A stretch of 64,000 nucleotides of DNA from Eledone cirrhosa (Eukaryota): NCBI GenBank assembly GCA_964016885.1, contig OZ024742.1:51150001-51214000 (forward strand), in the 5' to 3' direction. Below the pieces are notes generated by a model. That model ran no database searches and was not told the origin of the DNA. It saw only the letters and a list, made by a program, of their open reading frames with translations. The position numbers and the translations under genes were made by a program. Shown piece by piece: positions 3,305-36,764 of the stretch. The number at the start of each line of letters is the position of its first letter. Position 1 is the stretch's first letter.

Positions 3305-3840
3305 CTACCTGGTGGCCATGGCGAAAGAGATCATGTGGTGGACAAGGTTGAAAGGGTTAAAGACAGACATTTTCCTCTTCGGCGAATGCCTGATTAACTT
3401 TTTCAAGTTTCACTTGAAGAGGAAATCAGGTTGGAGAGGCAAGTGCTGTTTTGTAGCAAGTTTGTTGAAAGGTGGGTGAATGTAGCGAGAAGGGTCCGAG
3501 TGAACGAGACCGCTCTGAATATACGCTTGTAGTTTGAGGAATGGAAATATTGAGATAGGGCGCTTGCCCTGGTGGCCAGGGTGTCTGTGGTGTTATGTGT
3601 GGTTTTCGCCACGAGTAACCCTCGGAGGTTTCCCCTCTATTGTGGAATCTTTCATTGTTTGAATGTTCGTTTTTATTGTTTATATATATATATGTTTCTA
3701 TATCTTTTTTTTTTTCGTTTCTTATATGAATAATAAAGATTTTACACGCACAAAACCTACATCGTACCGTCCTGTACCGTCCTGTGCCGACTGTAATGTT
3801 TTTCTTGATGTCAGCCCTTGTGGCCAATAAAGACATAACA
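3305..3840 (+). mobile_element. 5'-truncated Tx1/L1-type LINE (B0): end of ORF2 plus 3'UTR
   Basis: Translates LVAMAKEIMWWTRLKGLKTDIFLFGECLINFFKFHLKRK, matching the ORF2 C-terminus of the minus-strand elements (closest to B3). Ends CCCTTGTGGCCAATAAAG followed by (TAA)n. Confidence 0.9.
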
Positions 3841-3845
3841 ATAAA

Positions 3846-3897
<52 letters not shown>
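3846..3897. repeat. (TAA)n tract between B0 and A1
   Basis: Directly visible. Confidence 0.95.
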
Positions 3898-6800
3898 GGG
3901 AAGAAGACGCACGAGGTGACGGAGGTCATGAAATCGTTCCCGTAAGTTTTGAATTTTTAACATATTTAAATCATTTGTGAAATAACAACTCTTAGTACAA
4001 ATGCTACGTAAAGCACCCGGCTTGAACCCCAAAAAATTCGGACCCAAAATATATTGTTATAAGGCACAAATATTCAAATATTCAACTTTGTATTGTACAC
4101 TGTATATCAAAAAAAAAAAAAATGGCTATAAATGGAAGAAGAAGAACCCCCCCCCCCCCTCCTCTCCTCTGGCTACACTATATAGGACAGCTAAACTCAC
4201 CAACACCAGAAACTAGATACACCACCCACCCCATCATCTGTGTACACTAAACACAACAGCATTTTCACCTTCACCGCCACCGCTCACTACGGCCATCATT
4301 ACCACCACTATCCCATCACCGCCGCCACCACCCCTTGACTCCTTCACTGCTGCTGCCACCGCTACAGCACCATCACTACAGTAATACGGTCGCATCACCG
4401 CCACCACTGCCTCGGTATCGACATCACCACCACCACTGTCTCAGTATCGCCAACGCCGCCAGTCTCCCACTTCTCCCTGTTGGCTGCCACTTCCACATTA
4501 TAGAATTCCTACTACTAACAAAGAGGAAGGCATCAAAATATATAGATAGACCCAAAAGAAAAAAGAAAAAACAAACAACAAAACCAAAGCAGCACAGCAA
4601 CAACAGCAAAAAACGAGAAAAACAAACAGAGAAAAACAAAAACAAAAAAAGAAACCCCAAAAACGTAAAGAAAATAAGAATGAAGAGAGAAGCAGGCGGA
4701 CGGACAGAGAAGAGGGGGGGAAAAGTAAAACTTAAAAAACAAAAACTAAGTCAGACATTCGAATACTACATTACAATGAAACTTATGCTTATTCATTTTT
4801 GGGGCCCTTTCTGCCCGTGTGTTTGTTTGTTTATGTGTGTTCGTATACAGCGTGGTGATAATGCCACACAAGGGCCAAGTGGGATGGCGGATCCACAGAT
4901 GGCTATGTAAACATACATTCGCCAATCCTCGATAAGAGTGTTTAAATATCGAACATAAACAGTTCGAATAACGGTGAAATGGAGACTAGAACGTCATGTG
5001 ACAGACTCTCACCCAACAGGTGCCCCCTGGCTCAGCAGCAGGAACCTGACTGTCAACCAAATACTGCTGATGTTGGAGGAAGAAGAAGAAGGAAAGGGGC
5101 CAGAACCAACTGGACGAAAGAATTGAATAGAACTGTTATGCAATGCTACCTGAAAAGTAACCCCAAGGAGAGGGGCTACAGGAGACGGATGCATAACATC
5201 TGGAACGAGATTGGTTTATTTAAATTAGATGAACAAAAATTGGCCGGGTAGGCTCGGGTAATAAGAACTAATGGGTGGATAAGCGAGCTGGAACTGGAGG
5301 AACTGAGCAGAGAGAATGGCTTGGAGATGGCGGGTGTAGTATGCCAGACAAGCGAGCCGGCGGGAAATGAAGGTGAGGAGGTCCTGAGAACGGAGGAACC
5401 ACCCGAAGCAGACAATGATCTGAATACTGAGATAAATAATACCTGGGACAGAGATACGGCCACTGAGGAGATGAATGCTGACGGGCTAGGACAAGATTCG
5501 GTTGACATCCTAAATTTAGTGGTAGATGAGTTGAACAATGATAGTGAGAGACCTATGAACCTAAGATTTGTAGACAGGAAAAAGTTAAAAGAAACAACAG
5601 CTAAGGTAAACAAAGTCATCCCATACCTTGAGGCGAGGAGTCTTCACCAGTGCAACAATATCCTCAAAGCAACAGCAAATAGGGTGAGGAAACTATTTGG
5701 TATAAAAGCGAGAGGAAACAACAGAGAAGAAAGAGCAGAGCCGTGGTGGAAGAAGCGACTGAGTGGGCAAATCGGGGAAATGAGAAATGACATAGGAAAG
5801 CTTGAGTCACTACTGAATGGGACACTAAAAAACATAGGCACTAAAAATAGACTGGAAATAAAATACAAAACTAGGAGTAAAAAGCTAAATATTATCATAG
5901 AGGAATTGAAGCAACGCATTGTAGCAAAGAGTGCCAAAATCAGGCGATACGAGAACAGAGTCAGTCAGTATAAACAGAACCGCATGTTCGACAACAACCA
6001 GAAGATGCTGTTTGGACAGCTTGAGGGGAAAGAAAGAGGCAACGACTTGATCCCTGGGGCGGAACAAGCTAAAACATTCTGGAGAGGAATATGGGAGCAG
6101 GATGTTAGACACAATGCCCAGGCAGGGTGGATTGAGACAGTACAGAGGGAGATCGGTGAGCAGGCACAACAACAGACTGATTTGAGTATCACAGTTGAAA
6201 CTCTTAAGGGGCAAGCCAAAAAACTAACCAACTGGAAATCACCAGGCCCAGATGGTGTGCAGGGGTATTGGATTAAACATTTAACATCCCTCCACCCGAA
6301 GCTGACGGCCATGTTCAATGACTGCTTGGTGTCGGGTGAGGTGCCAGAGTGGTTGACAAAAGGTACCACAGTTCTGATAATGAAAGACCGAATCAAGGGT
6401 AATGATGTTACCAACTATAGACCTATCACATGTCTGCCCGTAATGTGGAAACTGTTGACGAGCATTGTGTCTGAGGAAATCTACCATCACCTCCACACAA
6501 ACAACTTGTTACCGGACGAACAGAAAGGATGCCGAAAGAAGTCACGTGGTACAAAGGACCAGTTGCTTATTGATAAGATGGTAATGGGGAATTGCAGGAG
6601 GAGACACACTGATCTTGCCATGGGATGGATAGACTACAGAAAGGCATTTGACATGGTGCCTCATTCCTGGATCACCAAAAGCCTGGAGATCTTCAGGGTG
6701 GCAGATAACATCAGACAGTTTCTGGGCAGGAGTATGGTGTCCTGGGAGACAGAGTTGACATCAACTGGAGTATCCTTGGGAAGCGTGAAGATCAAGAGAG

Positions 6801-8446
6801 GTATCTTCCAGGGAGATAGCCTGTCCCCTCTGTTGTTTGTCCTTGCCCTGATGCCCTAGACCATTATGCTGCGAAAAGTGAGAGCAGGATACAAGTTGGG
6901 AAGAGGAGAGCTTACCATCAATCACCTCCTCTTCATGGACGATCTTAAGCTCTTCGGGAAAAGTGAGAAGGAGTTGGATGTGCTTGTTGACACTGTCCGT
7001 ATTTTCAGCAGTGATATATGTATGCAGTTTGGTATTGGTAAATGTGGAGTCATTGTGATGAAGAGGGGTAGGTTGAGCAGAAGTAACGGGATCCAGATAC
7101 CAACAGGTGAGATGATAAATGAAATTGACTCTGAGGAAGGATACAAGTATTTGGGCGTTCTGGAGGCTGATGGCATAAAGAACAAAAAAATGAAGGAATT
7201 GTTAAGAACTGAATACATTCGGAGAGTAAGGAGCGTATTGAAGTCACATCTGAACAGCAGAAATGCCATAAGCGCAGTAAATTCCCGAGCTGTGTCTATT
7301 ATTAGGTACAGTGCGGGAATTCTGAGATGGAATGTTGCTGAACAAAAAGAAACGGATAGGAAGACTAGGAAGCTATTGACTATCTACAACATGTTCCACA
7401 AGAGGAGTGATGTCGATAGACTCTACCTAAGGAGATCTGAGGGTGGAAGAGGTCTTATCAGCATAGAGGACTGTGTTCAGATGGAGAAAAACAACCTATA
7501 CAAATACGTGACCTATAGTAAGGAGCCAATGCTCAGAGCTGTACTGAAGGAGGGGACAGTAGGCCAGGGGATATCCAAGGAGGAAATAACATCAAGGAGG
7601 AAGAGCAGCCTTAAGGGAAAATCCCTTCATAGTACCTTCTTTGAGAAAACTGAATTTAGAGATCCACAGACATGGAACTGGTTGAGAAGAGGAGACCTCA
7701 AAAAGGCTACAGAAGGAATGCTAATGGCTGCGCAGGAGCAGGCCCTCAAAACGAAGTGGTTGAAGCACCATATCTACAAGGAGGAGGCTAGCCCACTGTG
7801 CAGGATCTGTGGAGAGAGAGAGGAGACTGTGGCTCACATTGTGTCCGAGTGTAAACACCTAGCCCAGACCCACTATAAGGGCTGGAGACACGATGTGATG
7901 GGCAGGGTGATCCACTGGCACCTGTGCAAAGTAAACAATCTACCACATTCTGAGAAATGGTATGAGCATAGGCCAGAGGCGGTGATGGAGAACAGTCAGG
8001 TGAAGGTGCTGTGGGATTTTAGGATACAGACGGACAAAAAACTGGAACACAATAGACCTGACCTGGTGGTTGTGAACAAAGAAAAAAGATCGTGCCTGAT
8101 TGTGGATGTGGCCTGCCCGTTCGACACGAGAGTGCAAGAGAAGGAGAGGGAGAAAATTAACCGATACCAGGACCTAAAGTGGGAGGTGAAAAGGATTTGG
8201 AACTGCCATGAAGTCAAAGTGATCCCGATTGTCATAGGAGCACTGGGGACTATCTCCAAAGGTTTCCAGGGATGGTTAAAGAAAATCGGCCCCTTCACGC
8301 TTTTTGGAACGCTTCAAAAGGCATGCTTGCTTGGAACAGCAAGAACCCTCCGATACGTCCTGAATATCTGAGGCTGCAGGTAGTGGCTTGATATTCAATC
8401 CAACGGACTTTCCAGTTAACCAACATCAATGACTGAGATTCAAGGA
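3898..8446 (+). mobile_element. Full-length R4/Dong-type RLE non-LTR retrotransposon (A1)
   Basis: Same 5' start (GGGAAGAAGACGCACGAGG) and 3' end (GACTGAGATTCAAGGA) as the copy at 16066-20705. Flanked by (TAA)n. Carries a single RT+RLE ORF. Confidence 0.92.
4979..8371 (+). pseudogene. A1 ORF (1130 codons): N-terminal Myb-like region, RT, CCHC finger, PD-(D/E)xK endonuclease; two in-frame TAG stops
   Basis: Three ORF-track pieces share one frame. Motifs: [50 protein letters not shown]. The TAG at 5249 is CAG in A2; the TAG at 6857 is TTG in A2 and A3. Confidence 0.93.
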
Positions 8447-8457
8447 ATAACAACAAT

Positions 8458-8496
<39 letters not shown>
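8447..8496. repeat. (TAA)n tract at the tail-to-tail A1/B1 junction
   Basis: Directly visible. Confidence 0.95.
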
Positions 8497-8497
<1 letters not shown>

Positions 8498-8739
8498 TTT
8501 TCTTTATTAACCATAAGGGTTTACATAAAGTAGACATTAAGGACAGTACAGGACAATACAGGACGGTACAAATGGGAATTTCTGCGTGTAAAAAAAACAG
8601 AGGATGAAATAAAATAACAAAGAAAAATTCCCCAATACGGGGAAGACTTCCGAGGGACATTTGTGGAGAAAGCCCATTAAAAGACCACTGTGGCCCTGAC
8701 CACCAGGCAAGTGCCCTCTCCCAGTTTTCCACCTTTAAT

Positions 8740-11700
8740 TTACGGACACATACTCAGAGAAGGCCCATTCATTCGGGCCATACTTGCTTCTCTCACCCAT
8801 CTTTCAACAAAATGCTGGGAAGAGAGCACTTCCCTCTCTACCCTGATTTTCCTTTTCAGATGAAATTTGAAAAAGTTAATCAGGGCATCACCGAAGGGGT
8901 AAGTGCTCGTCTTCAGCCCTTTCAAACGTGTCCACCATACTATCTCTTTCGCCATGGCCACCAGACAGATAAAAACTGCCTGCCCTTCCCGGCTAAAGGA
9001 AGATGGCGGGGCAATCCTCACGATGGACTCAGCTGATAGCTGGATCCGTCCTACACGTGACAGAAGGTGTTCGACATAAACCCACAAGTCAGCAATGCTC
9101 AGACACTGGACGAGTGCGTGCAGGACGGTTTCGTCGCCCTGTGCGCATCTCGGACATGCCCGGCTGACGGCACCTCCATGCCTGTAAAGTTTATCCCGAA
9201 CTGGCAAAGCACCCCGGTAGCACTGCCAGGCCAGGGATTTCTGGAAGTTGTCCATAGGCCCCGGCCCGAAAGTCCTTCCGAAGAGATTGGCTAGTTGATT
9301 TTCGTCGACGTCTAGAGTTTCTCCAAGTACGTCGTCGCTCTTCCCCTCCACTAATCCCCTATAGGACGCCAAGGTGGAGTTTCCACCGATCACATTGCCC
9401 GATTGGTCGAGGGCTGTGAGCGCCTGAAGACATTCCAGTCTCCAAGAGCTCCCTCTCGGTCTTCGCTTGACCCAGGACTGCAGCTCCATCAAGGAGACGA
9501 GCTGGGGAAAAACGTGTCTAGCAAACGGCGACCACACCTGATCACCGTCGAGGAAGAGGTGGAATGTCGTAGCCTGAGCGCGTGTCTGCGCATCATCGGC
9601 CACGGCATGCCCAGCCCTCCAAGTAGCGGGTGTTGACAGCAGATGGACCGCCTGACCATCGGAGCGCGTCCCTTCCACAAGAAGCGAAAGAGCAAACGCT
9701 CCAGCACAGTCAGGCGGGGCTTAGGACAAGGTACGATGGTCAGGCGGTAGTAGATGACGGACGCGATGTACGCGTTAGCCACCTCCGCTCGACCTTTCAG
9801 GGATAGCTTCCTCTCCGCCCATTTCTGGGTGAGAGAAGCCACCCTGCTCGTCACCTCGTCCCAGTTTTTGTCCGTCTGGAGGTCTGGACCGAACCAGACC
9901 CTTAGCAAGTTTATCGGTCCGTCCGTCCAGCGCACGACGACGCTGTTGGACGGCATGGACCTGCCTCTCCAGGAGCCGAGATGCAGGCCCACTGACTTTT
10001 CCTGGTTGATCATTGCTCCTGTCACCGCTTCGTATTCTCTTAGTGTAGTGCCGATCGCCTCGATGTGTTTGGCGTTCGACACCACTACGGTGACATCGTC
10101 GGCATATGCTGACACGGATCTTCCGCATCCTAGTTCGCGCGGGATCCCCCTCATTGTCTCCAGTTTGTGCAGTAATGGCTCGAGAGTCAATACGTACAAT
10201 AGGGACGAGAGGGGACATCCTTGGCGGACCGAGCGCATGATGTTGAACGGTTCCGAAAGGTGACCGTTCACTCTCACTACAGAGCAGATGTTGCTGTGCA
10301 TGGCAGCGATCCAGCCTCTGAAGACGGGCCCAAAGCGAGCCGCCCTCAGGACTGCCGCTAGGTAACGATGGTCGACCCTATCGAAGGCTTTCGACTGAGC
10401 TAAATTGATCAAAGACCAACCCGTGCCAGGTTCCCTAGCTACCCTCTCTACGATGTATCGCATGAGGTGGAGGTTGTCGTGGATGGATCTGTCGGGAATG
10501 GCACATGCCTGTGCCTCTCCCACCAGACCACCAACGACAAGCGCCAACCTCTTTGCTAGCACCTTGGACAAAATCTTGAACTCTGTGTTTAGCAGAGTTA
10601 TGGGCCTAAAATTATCTATGTTATCCCCCTTGTTCGGATCCTTTCTCAGCAGCGCCACCGCTCCTCGGCTCACAGAGCTGGGAATTCTCCCGTTCTGTTG
10701 CCAGTTGCAGTAGACGTCCGCCAAGAGGCCTCCGAACAAGTTTGGCATTTGTACGTAAAGTTCATAGGGCAGACCATGCAAACCAGGCGATTTACCCCTT
10801 GTGCAACTTGTCATTGCATCCCGTATATCAGCGGTTGTTATCGGCTTTTCGCAACACTCCGCCTCAGTGGCCGAAAGCGGCGGCAGTCCGTCAAGGTAGA
10901 CACTAAAGTCCATCCCTCGATCCGGCCCGCCACTGCCCCCGAACAGTTGAGCGAAGTGTCGCTGAAAAGCTTCACACATTTGCCCGGGATCGAGTAGCAT
11001 GCGCCCGTCGTGGTCCACCAAAGACGCGCCTTCGCCACTCGGGCCCATTGAACGGCTTTCGTCCCCTCGTGTCCGGGAGCACGCACCCTAGCTCTGACAA
11101 TGCAGCCTTCGTGCTTTGTATTGAAGAATTGGTCAAGGGCCAATTTCGCCGCAAGTACGTCGGTCGCGATGCCTTTGCTAAGCGCCTCATCTAATTTTCT
11201 AACTAATTCTCCCTCTGCTCTATTTTTCTCTATTGCTAAAGTCTTACTAAACCTAATGGACTCTATTCTAATTGCTCTTTTCAGAGCAAACCACCACTTG
11301 TTGTTGACGATGGCCCCCGTCAACGCCCTCTTAACTAGTTCGATAATCCGGTCTCTGTAGGCCTTGCGCGCTGGTAAGGACGCGTTTAGATTCCAGTAGC
11401 CGGGTCCTCGTCTATGAAGCCTATCTAAGTCAAGCACACAGATCACGAATGTGTGGTCCGTGTAGCTGACTATCTTGAATTGTGGACAGCCTATGCTAGA
11501 CCTATCTATTTCTCTACAAAATACTCTATCTAGATATGATCTGGATGACCCTACGCGATTTGTCCAAGTCCACATTGGCACATTCGAGAAATCCATTCGG
11601 TACCTGTCAGACAGTTCAAAACGTCTGAGCAAGTTGGTGAGACTCTTGCACCCTCCTTCCCTATCCACTAATCCCACACAATCCCAGCGTGCATCTAAGA

Positions 11701-12133
11701 TCCCGTTCCAGTCGCCCACTAACACTAAAGAGCGGGACGTTCCAAGAAAGGTCTCCAGACGCCTGAAGAAATCAGGCCGCCCTGCTCCTATCGTGGCATA
11801 GACGGCCACTAACCTGAAAGCTTGCCCGTCTCCGCTGGTCACGTCCAGCACCACCAACTTACCTTCTGGGTCCAGGAAGATGGCCCGTATGGCAAGATCC
11901 AAACCTCTCCGAAAAAGCACAGCAACTCCTCCCCCCGATCCCGGACGGCTGGGAGATGCGTACACCTCGTAGCCGCCGATGATCGGTGCGAAAGCCTGTG
12001 CCTCGGAGATTCTGGTCTCGCTGATGGACACTACATCTATGCTTAGTGACCTGAGGTCGTTGAGCAGGTGGCCCTGCTTCCATGACGACCCCAAGCCACG
12101 CGCATTTATGCTGCCTATTCTGAGTGAGGTCAT
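8740..12133 (-). pseudogene. B1 ORF2: APE endonuclease, RT, C-terminal zinc finger; frameshifted
   Basis: Motifs GSINARGL, GDWN, SYLDR, TDH, RQGCPLS, YADD, CPRC..H..C. Relative to B2 it has a 25-nt deletion near 11025 and a 1-nt deletion near 9563. Confidence 0.92.
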
Positions 12134-12167
12134 GTTGAAAAGGAGTGGAAAAGATGGGAAAGACCAC

Positions 12168-14158
12168 TTACCTTACTTCTCGTAGGGGAAGGCCTGTTTT
12201 TCCATCCTTTTCACTGCTTGTGGCCTCCTCAGGAAGGATGTCCTTATAAATCCTCCTGGAGAGTGCTTGTCGGAAGTCTCCGATGTCTTTGGGGAATTCT
12301 TTTTTGTTTTAGTGTCATGTACGTTTTCTGTGTGATGCGAGTGATTTGTATGTGTGTAGGTGGTGTGAATTTTGGGGTTGTTGTGTAGTCTTTTTCTGTG
12401 ATGCTGGTGTTGTGTTGGATGTAGTGTAATAATTGCTTGTTGTTCAAATTTAATGCTATGTAGTGTGTATCGTTTTGGTTGTTTTGTTTTGTTTGCGTTT
12501 GTTGTGGGTTTGTTTCTGTTTCGCATTTTGGTGACTTTTGTGGTGTAGGTGATGGTGGTGTTGGGGTTAATGATGGTGATGGTGTTGGTGTTTGGGTTGA
12601 TGGGGTTGGTGATGCTGGTGTGGATGGTGGCATATCTGTCCTAACTTTTTTGTTTCTTAGTTTATTTGTTTCCCTCTGTATTTTGTTTTTGGAGGGGGAA
12701 GGAAGAGAATTTTTTCTTTTTTGGTTTCTTTTTTTTTTCCGGATATCGTTTCCCACTCCTCGTCGTCACAATCTGTCTCCAGTTGTGATAGGCCGGGGAG
12801 TGGAAAATCCTCCACAGGCGTTAGTTTTGGTTGTGGCGTGGTGGATGGTGTAGGCGCTGGTGCTAGTTCTGAAGCGTTAGGTGGTGGTGGTGTTGGTTTT
12901 GCTGGTGGTGGTGGTGGTGTTGGTTTTGCTACTGTTGCTGGGGTTGTTGCTGTTATAGTTGCTTCTGTTGTTGCTGCTACAGTTGTTGCTGCCATCTCTG
13001 CTACTGGTGGTGTTGATGGTTGTGTCACTGGGGTGGGTAGGAGAGGTGGCCTCAACCTTTTAGCCTGAGGGCAGAAAGCCCTTAGGTGGGTTCCTTCACC
13101 ACAAACGACACACCTAGGTCTTCTGCCCTCGACAATTACCGTGAGGTGGCTGCCGTCAGTGAGGTCTATTACCTCTGGGATCTCCTCAATGCTTTTTTGG
13201 TCCGCTTGGATCATGAGCTCCATCCCAGATCCGGACCAGTTCTCCTGCTTTTCTTTTGCTATTGCTATTATTTTTGTGTTGGCTTCGATGCCGGCGAGGA
13301 CGGCCGCTATTAGCCAGGGAATTTCGATGGCCGGTGGAACGTGGGTCACCCTGATCTTTACGAGTCTCTGGCCACAATAGCTTGGGATGAGTGTGAAGTC
13401 GTCACTTCTTAATGGGGCCATGGAGTGTTCTCTAGCCTCCTCTGGTGTTTTAAAGAACACGTCCACGGTTCCATACTTTTGCCCACGTCTGATGAGGGTT
13501 TGTCTTGCCTACACTTGTCCCAAAGCTTTTTGGATTTGGGACTCGGATGCCCGTTCCACTCGGCGCGATTTTACATTTATTGTTCGATACGACACGGTGC
13601 ATAGGCGCCGATGCTCCATTTTATTAGGTGGGGGGTGAGGCTGACCCTGTACCCATCTTTCTTTACCATTTGTTTGGCATTTTCTAAATCCTCCTGAGTT
13701 ACCGTAAATGCTTCGAACTGTTTTGCTACTCTGGCGAAACTGAGTTTTTATAATGTCATTGTTGTTGTTGCTATCGTTATTTGTGTTAATATTAATTTTA
13801 GTTTCAGTTGTGGTGGTGGCGACGTCAGTCGTCTTTGGTGGGGAAGAGTCCATTTTGCTTGATTTCATTTCGACATCACGAGTTAATTTATTTTTTCTTC
13901 TTTTGTTTCTGTTGTCGCGGTGGTGGTGGGCGTGGTGGTTGTCGCGGTGGTGGTGGTGGTGGTGGAGGCGGTAACACCTGCAGTCATTGGGAATGGCGGG
14001 AAATGAATGTCTGCCTGAGACTAATTTAAAATATTGCTACTGCTTATATTTTTTGTAGTGTTGGCAAACGTAGTAACATTTACAATGGTGGTGTCGGTGT
14101 AAGGTGTTAATTTGTGAGGAAGGCTTTCAGCTGCTTGGTGCAGAGGTGAATTAGCCAT
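12168..14158 (-). pseudogene. B1 ORF1 (gag-like, one CCHC knuckle), disrupted
   Basis: CVVCGEGTHLRAFC knuckle. The core aligns with B2 ORF1. Internal stop at 13509-13511 plus frameshifts. Start inferred from AAAAATGGCT context. Confidence 0.8.
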
Positions 14159-14347
14159 TTTTTTTCAAATAAATTTGTTGTTAAGAATAAAATTTTAAAT
14201 TTTGGGCACAAAGCCCCAATCTGTTTGGAAAATTTTTATGACAAGCATTTATAACAATCATTTATGGAAAATGTTTATAACAAACCTTTGCGGAGCTCAC
14301 GATGATACGATTTACTACGTAGGTCGCAAATAATAATAATAATAATA

Positions 14348-15995
14348 GCAAGGGCTATTATCCACTGTGGAGCAGTTCAGTGATGACATTAAAATGGAGT
14401 TTGGACTAGATAAATGCGCCAAAGCAACGTTCACCAGAGGAAAGCTGCTGAAGAGTTAGGACATTAATCTTGATCGGGGGAACGTGATAAGAGAACTTGA
14501 TCAAGAAAAAACTTACAAATATCTAGGTGTTTGTGAAGGAGACGGATTTAAGCACTCGACAATGAGGGAAAGGATAAGGAAGGAATGTTACCGCAGAGTA
14601 AGAGCAATCTTAAGAACGGAATTGAATGCAAGGAATAGGATCGATGCCATAAACACGCTTGCCATACCAGTAGTAACCTACAGTTACAATGTCATCAACT
14701 GGTCAAGCACAGAGATCCGTAGGCTCGATACAAAAATTCGAAAATTCTTAACCATGCACAGAATGCATCACCCTAAGTCAGATATAGATAGAATATATCT
14801 CCCTAGGAAAGAAGGAGGACGTGGGTTAGTCCAGTTAGACATTGCGTTGAAAACTGCAACAATTGGATTATCTACATATCTAAGGGAATCACATGATTGG
14901 ATGATCAAACTCGTTTTGAAACACGAAAGCATCAAAAGATCATATTCCATTACAAAAGATGCACAAAGATACAGTAATGGAATACACATTTCAGAAGTCC
15001 CATTTACTGCTGAAATGGAAAACACAGAAAAAGCAAAGCACGTAAAAGTAACTGCAAAGAAAGAACTGCTACAGAAACTGGCTAAGAAATGGCAAGAAAA
15101 GCCTCTGTATGGAAAATACCCAGAACGAGCTAACAATCCTGATGTTGACAACACTTTAACCCATCAATGGTTGGCATCCTGTGGACTGAAATCGGAGACT
15201 GAAGGACTGATTATATCAGCACAAGATCAGTGTCTGCCAACAAAAAATTACCAAGCCAACGTAATAAAAATGGATGCAGCCCATTATGCCGTGTATGCAA
15301 AAAACAACCAGAGACCATTGACCATATAATTTCAATGTGCAGTCTATAGCTCAAACCGAATACCTAAATAGGCATGACAGAGCTGCACAATACATACATT
15401 GGATAATATGTAAGCATTTTGACCTGCGCCATCAAAAGAATTGGTGGGAGCATCAACCACCTGCCATACTTGAAAAATATGACATCTCAATCTTGTGGAA
15501 CTTTAGCATCCAAACAGACCGAAAAATAGATGCAGATAGACCTGATATAATATTGAAGGACTATAAAAAGAGGGTATGCCTGCTAATTGATATGTCCGTT
15601 CCAATAGACAAGAATGTATCTATAAAAACATTTGAAAAATTGTGCAAGTATAAGGACCTGGAGATAGAAATTGGAAAAATGTGGAAATTGAGTACTAAAA
15701 CAAAACCAGTGGTTGTAGGCGCTCTGGGAATGATACCTAAGGGGTCTAATGATTACTTATCGCAAATCCCAGGAAACCCGCATATAGGAGAAATACAAAA
15801 GATAGTACTCATGGGAACTGCCCATATACTAATGAAGATTCTGTCAATATAAGTACATCACAAGTCTAAACACTAAAGATGCATGTGTGAGTCTGTATGT
15901 TCTTTCTTGAACATGGCGGACCTTGTTGTCTCCTGAGGTCACTGGTTGTGACATGGTGATAACTCGTATGAACATCAAGCAAGATAAATGCAACT

Positions 15996-15996
<1 letters not shown>
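14348..15996 (+). mobile_element. 5'-truncated R4/Dong-type element, second family (C1)
   Basis: Motifs MEFGLDKC, YKYLGV, GGRGL, RHD, RPDIIL..IDMSVP..EKLCKY. Frameshifted. (TAA)n on both sides. Same 3' end as C2. Confidence 0.9.

Positions 15997-16063
<67 letters not shown>
15997..16063. repeat. (TAA)n switching to (TTA)n, a self-complementary microsatellite
   Basis: Strand flips at ~16026. Confidence 0.95.
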
Positions 16064-16065: not shown

Positions 16066-19000
16066 GGGAAGAAGACGCACGAGGTGGTAGAAGGTCATGA
16101 AATCGCTCCCGTAAGTTTTGAATTTTTAACATATTTAAGTCATTTGTGAAATAACAACTCTTAGTGCAATTGCTACGTAAAGCATCCGGCTTGAGCCCCA
16201 AAAAAATTCGGACCCAAAATATATTGTTATAAGGCTCAAATATTCAAATATTCAACTTTGTATTATACATTGTATATTCAAAAAAGAAAATGGCTATAAA
16301 TGGAAGAAGAAATCCCCCTTCCTCTGTCTACACTATATAGAACAGCCAAATAACACCAATCTCACCAACACCAGAAACTAGATACACCACCTACCCCATC
16401 ACCTCTCTGTGTACACTAAACACAACAGCCAGATAACGGCAATTTCACCACCACCACAACCAATCTCAACATAATAAGGATAATAATAAATACTATTATT
16501 ATTGTCCCAAGTTTTAACAACATGTTTAATCCCAACATTAAGGGAATTTAGGTCAACACATATACGCGACTAACCCCATGGATTCACCGAACGGACATCA
16601 GTCCTTCATTGCTACGACCGCTACAACACCATCACTACAGTAATACGACCACATCACCACCACCACTGCCATCATTACTACCACTATCCCATCACCGCCG
16701 CCACTACTCCTTCATTGCTACCACCGCTACAACACGATCACTACAGTAATACGATCACATCACCACCACCACTGCCTCGGTATCGACATCACCACCACCA
16801 CTGTCTCAGTATCGCTACCGCCGCTATTCTCTCCCATTGCTTCCTGCAAGTTGCTGCCACCACGTTATAGAATTCCTACTAAAAAAGAGGAAGGCATCAA
16901 AATATAAAAAGAAAAAACAAACATCAAAACCAAAGCAGCACAGCAACAACAGCAAAAAAAGAGAAAAACAAACAGAGAAAAACATAAACAAAAAAACAAA
17001 AAAAAAACGTAAAGAAAATAAGAATGAAGAGAGAAACAAGCGGACGGACAGAGAATAGAAGGGAAAAACTAAGTCAGACATTCGAACACTACATTACAAT
17101 GAAACTTATGCTTCTTCATTTTGGGGTTTTTTTCTGGCTGTGTGTTTGTTTGTTTATTTGTGTTCGTCTACAGCGTGGTGATAATTCCACACAAGAGCCA
17201 AGTGGAGCCGCGCAACCACCGGAGACGGTGAATCCACAGATGGCTATGTAACCATACATTCGCCAATCCTCGATAAGAGTGTTTAAATATCGAACCTAAA
17301 CAAGTCGAATAACGGTAAAATGGAGACTAGAACGTCATGTGACAGACTCTCACCCAACAGGTGCTCCCTGGCTCAGCAGCAGGAATCTGGCTGTCAACCA
17401 AATACTGCTGGTGTCGGAGGAAGAAGAAGAAGAAGGAAAGGGGCCAGAACCAACTGGACGAAAGAATTGAATAGAACTGTTATACAATGTTACCTGAAAA
17501 GTAACCCCAAGGAGAGGGGCTATAGGAGACGGATGCATAACATCTGGAACGAGATTGGTCTATTTAAATTAGATGAACAAAAATTGGCCGGGCAGGCTCG
17601 GGTAATAAGAACTAATGGGTGGATAAGCGAGCTGGAACTGGAGGAACTGAGCAGAGAGATTAGCTTGGAGATGGAGGGTGGAGTATGCCAGGCAAACGAG
17701 CCAGTGGGAAATGAAGGTGAAGAGGTCGAGAGAACGGAGGAACCACCCGAAGCAGACAATGATCTGAATACTGAGATAAATAATACCTGGAACAGAGATA
17801 CGGCCACTGAGGAGATGAATGCTGACGGGCTAGGACAAGATTCGGTTGACATCCTAAGTTTAGTGGTAGATGAATTGAACAATGATAGTGGGAGACCTAT
17901 GAACCTAAGATTTGTAGACAGGAAAAAGTTAAAAGAAACAACAGCTAAGGTAAACAAAGTCATCCCATACCTTGAGGCGAGGAGCCTTCACCAGTGCAAC
18001 AATATCCTCAAAGCAACAGCAAATACGGTGAGGAAACTACTTGGTATAAAAGCGAGAGGAAACAACAGACAAGAAAGAGCAGAGCCTTGGTGGAAGAAAC
18101 GACTGAGTGGTCAAATCAGGGAAATGAGAAATGACATTGGAAAGCTTGAGTCACTACTGAATGGGACACTAAAAAACATAGGCACTAAAAATAGACTGGA
18201 AATAAAGTACAAAACTAGGAGGAAAAAGCTAAATATTATCATAGAGGAACTGAAGCAACGCATTGTAGCAAAGAGTACAGAAATCAGGCGATACGAGAAC
18301 AGAGTCAGTCAGTATAAACAGAACCGCATGTTCGACAACAACCAGAAGATGCTGTTTGGACAGCTTGAGGGGGAAAGAACGAGGCAACGACTTGATCCCT
18401 GAGGCGGAACAAACTAAAACATTCTGGAGAGGAATTTGGGAGCAGGATGTTAGACATAATGACCAGGGAGGGTGGATTGAGACAGTACAGAGGGAGATCG
18501 GTGAGCAGGCACACCAACGAACTGATTTGAGTATCACATTTGAAACTCTTAAGGGGCAGGCCAAAGAACTAACCAACTGGAAATCACCAGGCCCAGATGG
18601 TGTGCAGGGGTATTGGATTAAACATTTAACATCCTTCCACCCGAAACTGACAGCCATGTTCAATGACTGCTTGATGTCAGGTGAGGTGCCAGAGTGGTTG
18701 ACAAAAGTTACCACAGTTCTGATAATGAAAGACCGAATCAAGGGTAATGATGTTACACAAACAACTTGTTACCGGACGAACAGAAAGGATTCCGAAAGAA
18801 GTCACGTGGTACAATGGACCAGTTACTTATTGATACGATGGTAATGGGGAATTGCAGGAGGAGACACACTGATCTTGCCATGGGATGGATAGACTACAGA
18901 AAGGCATTTGACATGGTGCCTCATTCTTGGATCACCAAAAGCCTGGAGATCTTCGAGGTGGCAGATAACATCAGACAGTTGCTGGGCAGGAGTATGTGGT

Positions 19001-20705
19001 CCGGGGAGACAGAGTTGACATCAACTGGAGTATCCTTGGGAAGCGTGAAGATCAAGAGAGGTATCTTCCAGGGAGATAGTCTGTCCTCTCTGTTGTTTGT
19101 CCTTGCCCTGATGCCCTTGACCATTATGCTGCGAAAAGTGAGAGCAGGATACAAGTTGGGAAAGGGAGAGCTTACCATCAATCACCTCCTCTTCATGGAC
19201 GATCTTAAGCTCTTCGGGAAGAGTGAGAAGGAGTTGGATGTGCTTGTTGACACTGTCCGTATTTTCAGCAGTGATATATGTATGCAGTTTGGTATTAGTA
19301 AGTGTGGAGTCATTGTGATGAGGAGGGGTAGGTTGAGCAGCAGTAACGGAATCCAGATACCACCAGGTGAGATGATAAAGGAAATTGACTCTGAGGAAGG
19401 ATACAAGTATTTGGGCGTTCTGGAGGCTGATGGCATAAAGAACAAAAAAATGAAGGAATTGTTAAGAACTGAATACATTCGGAGAATAAGGAGCGTATTG
19501 AAGTCACATCTGAACAGCAGAAATGCCATAAGCGCAGTAAATTCCCGAGCTGTGTCTATTATTAGGTACAGTGCGGGAATTCTGAGATGGAATGTTGCTG
19601 AACAAAAAGAAATGGATAGGAAGACTAGGAAGCTATTGACTATCTACAACATGTTCCACAAGAGGAGTGATGTCGATAGACTCTACCTAAGGAGATCTGA
19701 GGGTGGAAGAGGTCTTATCAGCATAGAGGACTGTGTTCAGATGGAGAAAAACAACCTATACAAATACGTGACTGATAGTAAGGAGCCAATGCTCAGAACT
19801 GTACTGAAGGACGGGACAATAGGCCAGGGGATGTCCAAGGAGGAGATAACATCATGGAGAAAGAGCAGCCTTCAGGGGAAATCCCTTCATAGTACGTTCT
19901 ATGAGAAAACTGAATTTAGAGATCCACAGACATGGAACTGGTTGAGAAGAGGAGACCTCAAAAAGGCTACAGAAGGAATGTTAATGGCTGCGCAGGAGCA
20001 GGCCCTCAAAACGAAGTGGTTGAAACACCATATTTACCAGGAGGAGGCTAGCCCACTGTGCAGGATCTGTGGAGAGAGAGAGGAGACTGTGGCTAACATT
20101 GTATTCGAGTGTAAACACCTAGCCCAGACCCACTATAAGGGCTGGAGACATGATGTGATGGGCAGGGTGATCCACTGGCACCTGTGCAAAGTAAACAATT
20201 TACCACATTCTGAGAAATGGTATGAGCATAGGCCGGAGGCGGTGATGGAGGACGATCAGGTGAAGGTGCTGTGGGATTTTAGGATACAGACGGACAAGAA
20301 ACTGGAACACAATAGACCTGACCTGGTGGTTGTGGACAAAGAAAAAAGATCGTGTCTGATTGTGGTTGTGGCCTGCCCATTCGACACGAGAGTGCAAGAG
20401 AAGGAGAGGGAGAAAACTAACCGATACCAGGACTTAAAGTGGGAGGTAAAAACGATTTGGAACTGCCATGAAGTCAAAGTGATCCCGATTGTCATAGGCG
20501 CACTGGTGACTATCTCCAAAAGTTTCCAGGGATGGTTAAAGAAAATCGGCCCCTTCACGCTTTTTGGAACGCTTCAAAAGCATGCTTGCTGGGAACAGCA
20601 AGAACCCTCCGATACGTCATGAATATCTGAGGCTGCAGGTAGTGGCTTGATATTCATTCCAACGGACTTTCCAGTTAACCAACATCAATGACTGAGATTC
20701 AAGGA
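16066..20705 (+). mobile_element. Full-length R4/Dong-type element (A2)
   Basis: Colinear with A1, including the leader, which is longer here. (TAA)n tail. Confidence 0.92.
17320..20630 (+). pseudogene. A2 RT+RLE ORF, frameshifted
   Basis: Extra G near 18370, an 85-nt deletion at ~18757 (equivalent to A1 6412-6496), and indels near 20580. Confidence 0.9.
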
Positions 20706-22936: not shown

Positions 22937-22938
<2 letters not shown>

Positions 22939-23199
22939 TTTCTTTATTAACCACAAGGGTTTACATAAAGTAGACATTAAGGACAGTGCAGGACAATGCA
23001 GGACGGTACAAATGGGCATTTCTGCGTGTAAAAAAACAAAAACAGAGGATGTAACAAAAATAACAATGAAAATAACAATGAAAAAATTCCCCAATAGGGG
23101 GGAGACTTCGGAGGGACATTTGTGGAGAAAGCCCAGTAAAAAGCCACAATGACCCTGACCACCAAGGCAAGTGCCCTCTCCCAGTTTTCCACCTTTAGT

Positions 23200-26100
23200 T
23201 TACAGATATATACTCAGAGTCGGCCCATTCACTCGGGCCATTCTTGCTTCTCTCACCCATCTTTCAACAAAATGCTGGGAAGAGAGCACTTCCTTCTCTA
23301 CTCTGATTTTCCTTTTCAAATGAAATTTGAAAAAGTCAATCAGAGCATCACCGAAGAGGTAAGGGCTCGTCTTCAGCCCTTTCAAACGTGTCCACCATAC
23401 TATCTCTTTCGCCATGGCCACCAGACAGATAAAAACTGCCTGCCCTTCCCGGCTAAAGGAGGAGGGCGGGGCAATCCTCACGATAGACTCAGATGATAGC
23501 TGGATCCGTCCTAAACGCGACAGCAGGTGTTCGACATAAACCCACAAGTCAGCAATTTTCGGACACTGGACGAGTGCGTGCAGGACGGTTTCGTCGCCCT
23601 GCGCGCATCTCGGACATGCCCGGCTGACGGCACCTCCATGCCTGTAGAGTTTATCCCGAACTGGCAAGGCTCCTCGGTAGCACTGCCAGGCCAGAGATTT
23701 CTGGAAGTTGTCCATAGGCCCTGGCCCGAAAGTTCTTCCGAAGAGATTGGCTAGTTGATTTTCGTCGACGCCTAGAGTTTCCCCAAGTACGTCGTCGCTC
23801 TTCCCCTCCACTAATCCTCTATAGAACGCCGAGGTGGAGTTTCCACCGATCACATTGCCCGATTGGTCGAGGGCTGTGAGCGCCTGAAGACATTCCAGTC
23901 TCCAGGCGCTCCCTCTCGGTCTTCGCTTGACCCAGGACTGCAGCTCCGTCAAGGAAACGAGCTGGGGAAAAACGCGTCTAGCAAACGGCGACCACACCTG
24001 ATCACCGTCGAGGAAGAGGTGGAGATGTCGTAGCCTGAGCGCGTGCCTGCGCATCATCAGCCACGGCATGCCCAGCCCTCCACGTAGCGGGTGTTGACAA
24101 CAGATGGACCGCCTGACCATCGGAGCACGTCCCTTCCACAAAAATCGAAAGAGCAAACGCTCCAGCGCAGTCAGGCGAGGCTTAGGACAAGGTACGACGG
24201 TTAGGCGGTAGCAGATGACAGACGCGATGTACGCGTTAGCCACCTCCGCTCGACCTTTCAGGGATAGCTTCCTCTCCGCCCATTTCTGGGTGAGAGAAGC
24301 CACCCTGCTCGTCACCTCGTCCCAGTTTTTGTCCGTCTGGAGGTCCGGACCGAACCAGACCCCTAGCAATTTAACCGGTCCGTCCGTCCAGCGCCCGACG
24401 ACGCTGTTGGACGGCATGGACCTGCCTCTCCAGGTGCCGAGCTGCAGGCCCACTGACTTTTCCTGGTTGATCATTGCTCCTGTCACCGCTTCGTATTCTC
24501 TTAGTGTAGTGCCGATCGCCTCGATGTGTTTGGCGTTCGACACCACTACGGTGACATCGTCCGCATATGCTGACACGGATCTTCCGCATCCTAGTTCGCG
24601 CGGGACTCCCCTCAACGTCTCCAGTTTGTGCAGTAATGGCTCGAGAGTCAATACGTACAAGAGGGACGAGAGGGGACATCCTTGGCGGACCGAGCGCATG
24701 ATGTTGAACGGTTCCGACAGGTGACCATTCACTCTCACCACAGAGCAGATGTCGCTGTGCATGGCAGCGATCCAGCCTCTGAAGACGGGCCCAAAGCCAG
24801 CCGCCCTCAGGACTGCCGCTAGGTAACGATGGTCGACCCTATCGAAAGCTTTCGACTGATCTAAATTGATCAAGGACCCACCCGTGCCAGGTTCCCTAGC
24901 TACCCTCTCTACGATGTATCGCATGAGGTGGAGGTTGTCGTGGATGGATCTGTCGGGAATGGCGCATGTCTGCGCCTCTCCCACCAGACCACCAACGACA
25001 AGCGCCAACCTCTTTGCTAGCACCTTGGCCAAAATCTTAAACTCTGTGTTTAGCAGAGTTATGGGCCGGAAATTGTCTATGTTATCCCCCTTGTTCGGAT
25101 CCTTTCTCAGCAGTGCCACCGCTCCTCGGCTCACAGAACTGGGAATTCTCCCGTTCTGTTGCCAGTTGCAGTAGACGTCCGCCAAGAGGCCTCCGAACAA
25201 GTCTGGCATCTGTACGTAAAGTTCATAGGGCAGACCATCCAAACCAGGCGATTTACCCCTTGTGCAGCCAGTCATTGCCTCCCGTACTTCAGCGGCTGTT
25301 ATCGGCTTTTCGCAACACCTCGCCTCAGTGGCCGAGAGCCGCGGCAGCCCGTCGAGGTAGACACTAAAGTCCATCCCTCTACCCGGCCCTCCGCTGCCCC
25401 CGAACAGCTGAGCGAAGTGTCGCTGAAAAGCTTCACACATTTGCCCGGGATCGAGTAGCATGCGCCCGTCGTGGTCCACCAAAGACCGGATCGTGGCTTT
25501 GTTGCCACGACGCGCCTCCGCCACTCGGGCCCATTGAACGGCTTTCGTCCCCTCGTGTCTGAGAGCACGCACCCTAGCTCTGACAACGCAGCCTTCGTGC
25601 TTTGCATTGAAGAATTGGTCAAGGGCCAATTTCGCCGCAAGCACGTCGGACGCAATGCCTTTGCTAAGCGCCTCGTCTAATTTTCTAACTAGTTCTCCCT
25701 CTGCTCTATTTTTCTCTATTGCTAAAGCCTTACTAAACCTAATCGATTCTATTCTAATCGCTCTTTTCAGAGCAAACCACCACTTGTTGTTGACGATGGC
25801 CCCCGTCAACGCCCGCTTAACTAGTTCGCTAATCCGGTCTCTGTAGGCCTTGCGCGCTGGTAAGGACGCGTTTAGCTTCCAGTAGCCGGGTCCTCGTCTA
25901 TGAAGCCTATCTAAGTCAAGCACACAGATCACGAATTTGTGGTCCGTGTAGCTGACTATCTTGAATTGTGGACAGCCTATGCTAGACCTATCTATTTCCC
26001 TACAAAATACTCTATCTAGATATGATCTGGATGACCCTATGCGGTTTGTCCAAGTCCACATTGGCACATTCGGGAAATCCAATCGGTACCTGTCAGACAG

Positions 26101-26619
26101 TTCAAAACGCCTGAGCAGGTTGGTGAGGCTCTTGCACCCTCCACCCCTATCCGCTAATCCCACACAGTCCCAGCGTGCATCTAAGATCCCGTTCCAGTCG
26201 CCCACTAACACTAAAGAGCGGGACGTTCCAAGAAAGGTCTCCAGACGCCGGAAGAAATCAGGCCGCCCTGCTCCTGTCGGGGCATAGACGGCCACTAGCC
26301 TGAAAGCTTGCCCGTCTCCGCTGGTCACGTCCAGCACCACCAGCTTACCCTCTGGGTCCAGGAAGATGGCCCGTATGGCGAGATCCAAACCTCTCCGAAA
26401 AAGTACAGCAACTCCTCCACCGGATCCAGGACGGCTGGGAGATGCGTACACATCGTAGCCGCCGAAGATCGGTGCGAAGGCCCGTGCTTCGGAGATTCTG
26501 GTCTCGCTGATGGCCACTACATCTATGTTTAGTGACCTGAGGTCGTTGAGCAGGTGACCCTGCTTCCATGACGACCCCAAGCCACGCGCATTTATGCTGC
26601 CTATTCTGAGTGAGGTCAT
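23200..26619 (-). CDS. B2 ORF2, 1139 aa: APE endonuclease, reverse transcriptase, zinc finger
   Basis: Uninterrupted ORF. Motifs SINARGL, SET, VYAP, GDWN, YLDR, TDH, KSPGLDG, FRPITLLN, DQSKAFD, RQGCPLS, YADD, CPRC-x8-H-x4-C. Confidence 0.95.
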   Translation of the reverse strand: MTSLRIGSINARGLGSSWKQGHLLNDLRSLNIDVVAISETRISEARAFAPIFGGYDVYASPSRPGSGGGVAVLFRRGLDLAIRAIFLDPEGKLVVLDVTSGDGQAFRLVAVYAPTGAGRPDFFRRLETFLGTSRSLVLVGDWNGILDARWDCVGLADRGGGCKSLTNLLRRFELSDRYRLDFPNVPMWTWTNRIGSSRSYLDRVFCREIDRSSIGCPQFKIVSYTDHKFVICVLDLDRLHRRGPGYWKLNASLPARKAYRDRISELVKRALTGAIVNNKWWFALKRAIRIESIRFSKALAIEKNRAEGELVRKLDEALSKGIASDVLAAKLALDQFFNAKHEGCVVRARVRALRHEGTKAVQWARVAEARRGNKATIRSLVDHDGRMLLDPGQMCEAFQRHFAQLFGGSGGPGRGMDFSVYLDGLPRLSATEARCCEKPITAAEVREAMTGCTRGKSPGLDGLPYELYVQMPDLFGGLLADVYCNWQQNGRIPSSVSRGAVALLRKDPNKGDNIDNFRPITLLNTEFKILAKVLAKRLALVVGGLVGEAQTCAIPDRSIHDNLHLMRYIVERVAREPGTGGSLINLDQSKAFDRVDHRYLAAVLRAAGFGPVFRGWIAAMHSDICSVVRVNGHLSEPFNIMRSVRQGCPLSSLLYVLTLEPLLHKLETLRGVPRELGCGRSVSAYADDVTVVVSNAKHIEAIGTTLREYEAVTGAMINQEKSVGLQLGTWRGRSMPSNSVVGRWTDGPVKLLGVWFGPDLQTDKNWDEVTSRVASLTQKWAERKLSLKGRAEVANAYIASVICYRLTVVPCPKPRLTALERLLFRFLWKGRAPMVRRSICCQHPLRGGLGMPWLMMRRHALRLRHLHLFLDGDQVWSPFARRVFPQLVSLTELQSWVKRRPRGSAWRLECLQALTALDQSGNVIGGNSTSAFYRGLVEGKSDDVLGETLGVDENQLANLFGRTFGPGPMDNFQKSLAWQCYRGALPVRDKLYRHGGAVSRACPRCAQGDETVLHALVQCPKIADLWVYVEHLLSRLGRIQLSSESIVRIAPPSSFSREGQAVFICLVAMAKEIVWWTRLKGLKTSPYLFGDALIDFFKFHLKRKIRVEKEVLSSQHFVERWVREARMARVNGPTLSIYL

Positions 26620-26654
26620 GTTTAAAATAGAGTGGAAAAGATGGGAAAGACCAC

Positions 26655-28751: not shown

Positions 28752-28964
28752 GTTTTTTTGTTTAAAATGAAATTTTGGGTACAAAACCCCAATAACTGGC
28801 TATTTAACCCCGAAGGGCCAAATAACGGACAGAAAGACCCCTCTCACGAGGAGGAGGGTGTCTTTATCAACAATTTGGTTCAAGTTTTAAACAATTTACA
28901 ATTGTTTTAACGGTTAAAAATTACTATACCTTACAGAGCCGAGCCTCCGTCAACCATGGCATTC

Positions 28965-35028: not shown

Positions 35029-35056
35029 TAATAATAATAATAATAATGATAATAAG

Positions 35057-35240
35057 TGTTTCTACTTTTGGCACAAGGCCAACAATTACCCAGGTGCATT
35101 ACTGGTACTTTATGTTATCGACTCCGTAAGGATGAAACGCAAAGTTAATCTCGGCGGGATTTAAAGTTCGATCATACAGGGAGGTAGCTCTATAGTTCAA
35201 AGCATGGCGTCCGACCTTCTACCGATACTGCCAATCCACT
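35057..35240 (-). mobile_element. tRNA-derived SINE
   Basis: Reverse complement of the copy at 52036-52222; lies between TAA tracts. Confidence 0.85.
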
Positions 35241-35526: not shown

Positions 35527-36300
35527 GTTAACCCATTAGTAGTTGGCATCCTCTGGACTGAAATCGCAGACTGAAGGACTGATTATATCAGCACAAGATC
35601 AGTGTCTGCCAACAAAAAAATTATCAAGCCAACATTATAAAAAATGGATGCAACCCATTATGCCGTGTATGTAAAAAACAACCAGCGACCATTGATCATA
35701 CATTGGATAATGTGTAAGCATTTTGACCTGCCCCATCAAAAGAATTGGTGGGAGCATCAATTACCTCCCATACTTGAAAAGGATCACATCTCAATCTTGT
35801 GGAATTTAGCATCCAAACAGACCGAAAAAGAGATGCAAATAGACCTGATATAATACTGAAGGACTTTGAAAAGAGGGTATGCCTGCTAATTGATATGTCC
35901 GTTCCAATAGACAAGAATGTATCTATAAAAACATTTGAAAAATTGAGCAAGTATAATGATCTGGAGTTAGAAATTGGAAAAATGTGGAAGAGGAAAACTA
36001 AAACAATACCAGTGGTTGTAGGCGCTCTAGGAATTATACCTAAGGGGTCTAATGATTACTTATCGCAAATCCATGGAAACCTGCGTATAAGAGAAATACA
36101 AACGGTAGTACTAATGGGAACTGCCCATATACTAAGGGAGATACTATCAATATATGTACATCACAAGTCTAAACACGTAAAGAGGCATGTGTTTGTATGT
36201 ATGTTCTTTCTTGAACATGGCGGACCTTGTTCTCTCTGGAGGTCTCTGGTTGTGACTTGGTGATAACTCGTATGAACATAAAGCAAGATAAATGCAACTG
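35527..36300 (+). mobile_element. 5'-truncated family-C copy (C2)
   Basis: Colinear with C1 from ~15157, with an internal deletion. Same 3' end GATAAATGCAACTG. TAA flanks. Confidence 0.9.
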
Positions 36301-36310
36301 CAATAATAAT

Positions 36311-36496
36311 TGTTTCTACTTTTGGCACAAGGCCAGTAATTCACCAGTGCATTACTGGTACTTTATTTTATCGACCCCGCAAGAATGAAAGGCAAATTTA
36401 ACACCGGCGGGATTTGAACTCAGAATGGCAAGGGCCGTAACTCTATGCGTCAAAGCATGGCGTCCGACCCTCTACCGATACTGCCAATCTACCGCC
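36311..36496 (-). mobile_element. tRNA-derived SINE
   Basis: Full copy, abutting the C2 TAA tail and followed by (TAA)n. Confidence 0.88.
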
Positions 36497-36764
36497 ATTG
36501 TAATAATAATAATAATGATAATAATAACAACCACAACAGCAACGACAACAACAACACACCAACAACAACTACAACAAACGATGCTGACTATTTTCGGTAT
36601 TGGTTAAACACCTGGATATAGAATCAATTAGACCAAATATAGTACAGGTGTTCACAACAGCAAAGGCAGTTAATGACAGTTAGATGAGTGACGCCACAAA
36701 TTTTTAAAAAATCCCAAAACAACAACAAAGGCAACAACAAATTTAGTGGGTAAGTTTTCTTTAG

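Follow-up and report, generated by a model that had tools for sequence, protein, structure and literature searches.

Dong of Bombyx is an element of the R4/Dong clade that targets (TAA)n. Members of this clade have a single ORF with reverse transcriptase (RT), CCHC knuckle and restriction-like endonuclease (RLE), insert into (TAA)n and keep a native 5'UTR beside the ORF. Dong-R4 elements occur in octopus, according to PMC13282606. R2 also belongs to an RLE clade; its RNA is made as part of the rDNA transcript, from which an HDV-like ribozyme frees it (PMC8501958). Replacement of the 5'UTR and exchange between families are well described within L1 (PMC3600994 and PMC5381506). In these sources, mammalian L1 (with the A, F, V and Mus promoters of mouse) gained non-native 5' ends and swapped them between families by recombination or template switching, and the exchange took place within L1 or drew on unknown sources. 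A short 5' module shared by several families is also known from trypanosomatids, where published abstracts describe Pr77 of L1Tc/ingi and their non-autonomous partners as an internal promoter that is also an HDV-like ribozyme and is confined to one clade and its derivatives.

The window analysed here, a stretch of 64,000 nt from Eledone cirrhosa within a 3.0 Gb assembly, contains non-LTR elements nested in (TAA)n arrays at 3.3-36 kb, and its repeat types resemble those in the octopus table of PMC13282606. Its R4 families A and C have the R4/Dong organization but differ from the clade by a roughly 1-kb leader that starts with a Tx1-type head, whereas outside relatives lack this head and have a median of 213 nt ahead of the first Met. 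Like mammalian L1, they carry a non-native 5' end that was probably exchanged between families; unlike L1, the source would be the 5'UTR of an APE-clade (Tx1-like) element and the recipient an RLE clade, and the head is common to two R4 families only 31-39% identical in protein. The head resembles Pr77 as a short multi-family module, but no ribozyme was found in it and its sharing crosses the APE/RLE divide. R2 proteins are the top solved-structure matches of the A protein, yet A and C differ from R2 in being dispersed and in starting with what appears to be a promoter-like head. We regard the locus as a real inter-clade chimera, probably from Tx1 to R4 and then shared. The full reading, to which we give a rough probability of 0.62 on sequence evidence, is that an ancestor of family A took the ~230-nt 5'UTR of a now-extinct Tx1-like element, that this head is likely the internal RNA polymerase II promoter of A, and that it was then likely handed to the distant family C more than once. 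No report of an R4/Tx1 5' chimera, of an APE-to-RLE transfer or of a head common to distant R4 elements was found in a literature search that covered subscription papers and Repbase thinly; the families might sit in the supplements or repeat library of PMC13282606. The features discussed below are as follows, in window coordinates unless a locus is named.

3835-3897, plus strand: (TAA)n target array before A1 (TRF)
3898-4127, plus: head of A1, homologous to Tx1 heads (HMM, shuffles, alignment), 5'UTR-like, with A-run and ATGGCT at its end; putative internal promoter
3934-3950, plus: conserved motif of the GCTCC(C)GTAAGTTTT type with splice-donor-like GTAAGT at 3942-3947 (alignment)
4048-4074, plus: decayed palindrome, near-perfect in most Tx1 heads (alignments, folding)
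4128-4850, plus: C/A-rich low-complexity spacer with upstream ATGs and an acceptor-like polypyrimidine-ACAG at its end
4851-4945, plus: remnant of the native R4 5'UTR, structured (fold, z -2.7)
4946-8371, plus: single ORF of family A (RT, CCHC, PD-(D/E)xK; Pfam, translation, PDB), with two in-frame stops in this copy
8372-8496, plus: 3'UTR of A1 and downstream (AAT)n
14153-14327, minus: head (5'UTR) of Tx1-like B1 (element about 8497-14327)
14348-15997, plus: 5'-truncated copy of R4 family C; full-length C elsewhere has an A-type head
16066-16295, plus: head of A2, the second full-length copy; the same type occurs on some family C copies
16296-20704, plus: remainder of A2 (spacer, ORF, 3'UTR)
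28746-28964, minus: head of Tx1-like B2, with a motif matched exactly at 1443 genome positions (element about 22937-28964)
34800-35027, minus: head of Tx1-like B3
42290-46521, plus: old copy of R4 family D, a control family with unrelated leader
12170-12180, 26652-26662 and 33138-33148, minus: AAG/GTAAGT at the end of Tx1 ORF1
35030-35240, 36300-36500, 43510-43690, 52040-52230 and 53040-53190: SINE-like element of ~190 nt
36741-37091 (also loci L207, L209, L213 and L220): repeat unit of ~200 nt with the GTAAGTTTT motif
L110, 7700-7910, minus: 5'UTR of Tx1 family B6, of unrelated type
L129 leader ~997-1150, L307 95-205, L309 245-365, L310 and L313: conserved element of ~115 nt in the native R4 5'UTR
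L311 105-190, L328 24-105, L332 10-90 and L357 78-170: tRNA-like heads

Family A lies on the plus strand with one ORF encoding RT, a CCHC knuckle and a PD-(D/E)xK nuclease (Pfam, translation), and the top PDB matches of its protein are R2 proteins. In both A and C, Pfam recognized RVT_1 and zf-RVT, and the C-terminal CCHC knuckle and the restriction-like nuclease are visible in the translations; the APE domain Exo_endo_phos was not found in these two families in the Pfam search of the window. The full-length copies of families B1-B3 lie on the minus strand with ORF1 and an APE-RT ORF2, comprising Exo_endo_phos, RVT_1 and zf-RVT (Pfam), and their ORF1 has a single CCHC knuckle. The labels R4/Dong and Tx1 rest on structure and targeting: homologues carry no element names, the R4 RT tree consists of unnamed rows, and a named Tx1 was absent among 36 homologues in the RT comparison of Tx1 with L1. 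As to targeting, AAT-oriented repeats precede 111 of 127 R4 heads and the 3' ends of A and C continue into (AAT)n, while (ATT)n precedes the head at 8/8 junctions of B1 and 36/36 of B2. At the end of Tx1 ORF1 a conserved splice-donor-like AAG/GTAAGT holds the stop codon in most copies and is followed by a pyrimidine tract and then the ORF2 ATG (12/15 ORF1-ORF2 junctions).

Family A elements genuinely begin with the ~1-kb leader. It is common to A1 (from 3898) and A2 (from 16066), with 84.9% identity over 443 nt and then 90.8% into the ORF. Searching the genome with 3898-4140 yielded 1381 candidates at first look; 30 loci were retrieved, the window itself among them, and every one continues into the A ORF. 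The converse search with the A ORF start gave 1009 candidates, of which 30 loci were examined: 17 have the head start, nine are 5'-truncated inside the leader and the remaining four reach the end of the locus while still in the head; a different 5' end occurs in 0/30. The original prediction that the leader travels with the element was thus borne out at 30/30 loci each way, the leader is present in older subfamilies as well, and all DNA motifs it quoted are present in the sequence. The subfamily A-old (about 78% amino-acid identity to A) has the same architecture, and 23 of its 30 loci reach the A ORF start, the others being interrupted or internally deleted. The more diverged L110 leader, which follows (ATT)n, was considered as a Tx1 donor and rejected, as it belongs to A-old; a leader of this type never led into a sense Tx1 ORF1 in the 30 loci. 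The head core motif has 1739 exact genome matches and the A 3'-end motif 8727. A stand-alone head, a possibility raised earlier, did not appear among the first 30 head matches in genome order, where 18 lead into A, 10 into C, one into an internally deleted A, and one is interrupted by another element.

Several further observations concern the A elements themselves. The A ORF start (4943-4948) is directly preceded by a stop, reading TAA ATG in older subfamilies and TAA ATA in A1 and A2, which have a later ATG at 4979. The stop and start lie behind a structured region (z -2.7 to -3.0), and this arrangement may reflect reinitiation or internal initiation. A young subfamily (L006, L008, L012, L040 and others) carries a tandem duplication of ~330 nt corresponding to 4056-4389, which includes the end of the head and its ATG and is reminiscent of L1 promoter monomers. 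The abundant SINE-like element inserts at AATAAT sites, often within R4 leaders, and a fragment of it is fixed in the main C leader. The nearest outside proteins of the A ORF (4979-8371) are 66-70% identical (P0001-P0004), far closer than the co-resident C, which is compatible with horizontal arrival of A followed by adoption of a resident promoter.

We compared the leader with Tx1-like 5'UTRs collected by finding ORF1 and then walking to the microsatellite junction. In B1-B5 these heads are 175-228 nt long. Their first 45 nt are richer in GC and close with a GTAAG-like motif; a T-rich stretch comes next, then a palindrome some 60 nt ahead of the start, and finally an A-run with ATGG. The A head aligns colinearly with the 5'UTRs of about nine Tx1-like lineages. 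An HMM of 10 Tx1 heads scored A1 at 34.5, A2 at 33.0 and C at 30.4 bits, values reached by 0/300 dinucleotide and 0/300 local-window shuffles, while genuine Tx1 families, each scored with itself excluded from the HMM, gave 20-55 bits. One of 25 genomic controls scored 73.9 bits and proved to be another Tx1 head, which led to the older lineages B7-B10. With an HMM of 25 heads, A1 scored 53.9 and A-old 62.7 and 70.5 bits (0/500 shuffles); since B7-B10 had partly been found with an A-like motif, whose score is inflated in this HMM, the middle of the head was also scored alone. Without the GTAAG region and the ATG end, A1 scored 32.8, A2 23.9 and A-old 42.5 and 49.7 bits (0/500), and the C head scored 12.3 bits, which 7/500 shuffles reached. 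After bias correction the scores were 42.5 (A1), 35.7 (A2), 49.5 (A-old) and 10.5 bits (C), whereas 80 genomic 230-mers chosen for an A-rich ATGG end scored 8.0 at most. A reciprocal HMM gave up to 50.7 bits for B7 heads, 3.6 for B1, 10.7 for B2 and 21.2 for B3, with controls up to 10.2. Over its first ~230 nt the A leader thus exceeds chance in controls of three kinds; shuffled controls were what the original prediction had proposed. In pairwise alignments, A-old heads were 68-77% identical to B7 and B10 across 44-104 nt, most alignments spanning about 90-100 nt and containing few gaps; mean identity was 39-52% between A/C and Tx1 families and 40-63% among Tx1 families, and columns conserved among Tx1 heads show just a small excess of conservation in A (rho 0.15, p 0.03). 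A and C heads fold no better than shuffles, whereas most Tx1 heads fold better. Taken together, the head is very probably homologous to Tx1-like 5'UTRs.

The homology is narrower than originally predicted, and its donor is a different one. A captured Tx1 module extending over 3898-4860 was proposed, of which the first ~230 nt (3898-4127) hold; capture of a Tx1-type 5'UTR by an RLE element stands on stronger grounds than the quoted motifs, and the ORF1 part falls. On an HMM built from nine Tx1 ORF1 C-terminal peptides, the presumed ORF1 remnant HYITMKLMLLHF cannot be told from its shuffles, 75-137 of 200 scoring as high in four A leaders. C/A richness, taken as another trace of ORF1, also precedes the ORF of family D, which has no Tx1 head, and DNA matches behind the head ATG are short triplet-repeat, low-complexity and marginal against shuffles. 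The C-specific leader matches the start of B1 ORF1 over 16 nt and scores higher against other Tx1 ORF1s, but these matches were likewise low-complexity and rejected. The quoted TGACGGAGG match to B2 is present, but only in young-A heads; among the heads tallied, older A and C read TGGATAGAG or TGGTAGAAGG at this position, so the match is likely recent convergence or chance. The donor was not a B-type Tx1 of the window, as had been suggested: the head is most closely related to old Tx1 families from other parts of the genome, and the alignments support as donor an older lineage nearer to B7-B10 than to B1-B3. B7-B10 heads lead into a sense Tx1 ORF1 or ORF2 in 11/20 and 11/17 loci and never into a sense R4 ORF in these 20 and 17 loci. 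When donors were sought with an A/B5-like motif, it matched 16 times and the control pattern 25 times, which was uninformative beyond two more B5-type heads. In family B6 the head is unrelated (3.4 bits) although its ORF1 is 57-65% identical to that of B2, indicating that Tx1 families also replace heads.

The original prediction had seen the head on family A only and missed a second R4 family, C, that shares it. The C and A proteins are 38.6% and 30.7% identical over their two halves, and no blastn match was found between the A and C bodies. A genome search with the C ORF start gave 582 candidates; among the 30 loci examined, 26 have an A-related leader and four are truncated below the leader. 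An A-type leader is joined to family C at locus L095, and an A2-type segment occurs in 5/30 C loci with 89-96% identity. C bodies that carry two different head types are 99.7% identical over 430 nt, and one C-borne head shares 97.4% identity with A2 but 86.4% with the main C head. Eight heads without assignable body and four without clear ATG end were left out of the head tree; its 115 heads require five A/C label changes, of which at least three are forced by starred branches. These patterns make it likely that the head passed between A and C more than once; the exchange would have run through recombination or template switching in the common C/A-rich spacer.

Family D and R4 relatives outside this genome bear on the ancestral state. 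D clusters with C (SH-aLRT 85), and the fully supported group containing both leaves out A. The D leader, about 1.4 kb in the longest copy, is unrelated to the head (-0.2 bits); 11 of 22 D loci reached the ORF start. The repeat unit of ~200 nt at 36741-37091 resembles part of this long leader and occurs there without a D body. The head HMM found no match in the DNA upstream of 25 outside R4-like ORFs (at least 1000 aa), where 8-866 nt precede the first Met in contigs that may be incomplete. The last ~150 nt of the C leader align with the entire 5'UTR of the outside element L307 (score 100; shuffle maximum 37), which begins directly after (TAA)n, and the last ~70 nt of A-old align with the 5'UTRs of L313 and L309. 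The native R4 5'UTR is thus kept, complete in C and partial in A, with the joint near 4851 in A, which indicates that the long leader was added in front of it. Distant R4 elements have in common a conserved element of ~115 nt within their native 5'UTR; it had no Rfam match in C or L307 and is a candidate structured RNA for translation or 5' processing. A second conserved motif lies directly after (TAA)n in the first 150 nt of L323, L324, L327, L331 and L335; it also had no Rfam match and is possibly an undescribed ribozyme. In four outside R4/Dong elements from metagenome contigs, a tRNA-like head immediately follows the microsatellite, with A and B boxes in 4/4 and a tRNA called over it by relaxed ARAGORN in 2/4; these R4 elements may be autonomous and may have captured Pol III promoters.

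Two alternatives address the origin of the head. The resemblance might have arisen by convergence or composition, AT-rich 5'UTRs exposed to common host factors having evolved identical short motifs for core promoter, splice donor and start-codon context. This would suit the TGACGGAGG match confined to young A, the similar short motifs in frog L1 and the pairwise local scores against B1-B5, which are mostly at shuffle level, and it may hold for single motifs. It is largely refuted for the middle of the head, where 68-74% identity extends over about 90-100 nearly gap-free nt, 0/500 shuffles reached the middle-only scores and 0/80 real controls come near; with equal length and colinearity added, we consider convergence extremely improbable as the general explanation. 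Alternatively, the homology is real and the head came to both Tx1 and R4 from a third source, or from R4 to Tx1. The head tree is unrooted and star-like, naming neither donor nor root, and the B6 head implies that Tx1 heads are replaceable, both of which leave room for this option. It is nevertheless quite improbable: head diversity is much greater in Tx1 (about nine lineages versus one in R4), the head ATG opens ORF1 only there and in A and C just a dead-end frame of 16-84 aa, and the head is missing from D and from the 25 outside R4 relatives. Where the body was assignable, every carrier recovered by motif or DNA search was a Tx1 or an R4 element, which speaks against a third source. On the same grounds of diversity, ORF1 and headless relatives, transfer from Tx1 to R4 is quite probably the true direction. 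R4 heads follow AAT repeats and Tx1 heads ATT, opposite orientations in (TAA)n, so that tandem insertion in one array gives head-to-head pairs rather than a same-strand fusion. For the transfer from Tx1, an R4 copy may instead have inserted sense-strand in an AAT-like run near a Tx1 ORF1 start, the chimeric transcript then being copied by the R4 protein; a template switch would be another route.

The head probably functions as an internal promoter, because of its fixed start at unrelated loci, its long retention, its repeated spread to C and the lack of a ribozyme among those searched for, and also because two motifs reported for frog L1 5'UTRs are present. These motifs, (A/G)GACGC(G/A) and GAGCTCCG, are shared by frog L1 5'UTRs (PMC5381506 section 9), and both occur in the heads studied here. 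A search for HDV-like and hammerhead ribozymes at the 5' end gave no meaningful Rfam match, and simple ribozyme descriptors had no match in six leaders, although an undescribed ribozyme could escape them. The premise that RLE elements rely on read-through transcription is documented for R2 (PMC8501958); for dispersed R4/Dong elements no statement to this effect was found, and four outside R4 relatives carry the tRNA-like heads described above. A Tx1-derived head could instead be a passenger or act post-transcriptionally (U1 binding at GTAAGT, RNA stability, 5' junction formation), A and C being transcribed by read-through or from elsewhere in the leader. Motif-level constraint is weak and the palindrome decayed, leaders hold 10-21 upstream ATGs, and some 5' junctions repeat AATAAG-like letters, all of which would fit such a role. 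We consider it unlikely, given the start fixed at many unrelated loci, a head kept across subfamilies ~22% diverged in protein and spread into C more than once, and no ribozyme found that would cut read-through RNA at the head start. The leader might also be a 5'UTR intron, spliced out from GTAAGT at 3942 to ACAG at 4850: every A subfamily seen retains the donor-like and acceptor-like motifs, and splicing would delete most upstream ATGs. Against this, 0 genomic copies have both sides within 30 nt, compared with 1739 head matches, and the C leaders read lack the acceptor-like site, making the intron very improbable; the candidate joint was also absent in contigs of four runs of unspecified kind, which carries no evidential weight. 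Promoter activity of the head would free an element at thousands of (TAA)n sites from the need for a host promoter.

The origin of recruited LINE 5'UTRs is usually unknown, and here it can be traced across the deepest split among non-LTR elements. Transcription of dispersed RLE elements without a fixed host promoter is poorly described, and these families are young enough for testing, with many near-identical copies and a short candidate promoter for which A-old, A2, A1, C, D and Tx1 heads supply natural variants and controls. Repeat libraries will cross-label the 5' ends of A, C and the Tx1-like families. We tentatively suggest, at somewhat less than even odds, that (TAA)n-targeting elements form a promoter-sharing guild, in which a single head adapted to the host passed from an APE to an RLE element and was repeatedly traded among distant R4 families, enabling their current expansion. 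In its wider form, R4/Dong elements are perhaps promoterless and may bolt on heads, of Tx1 type here and tRNA-like in other animals.
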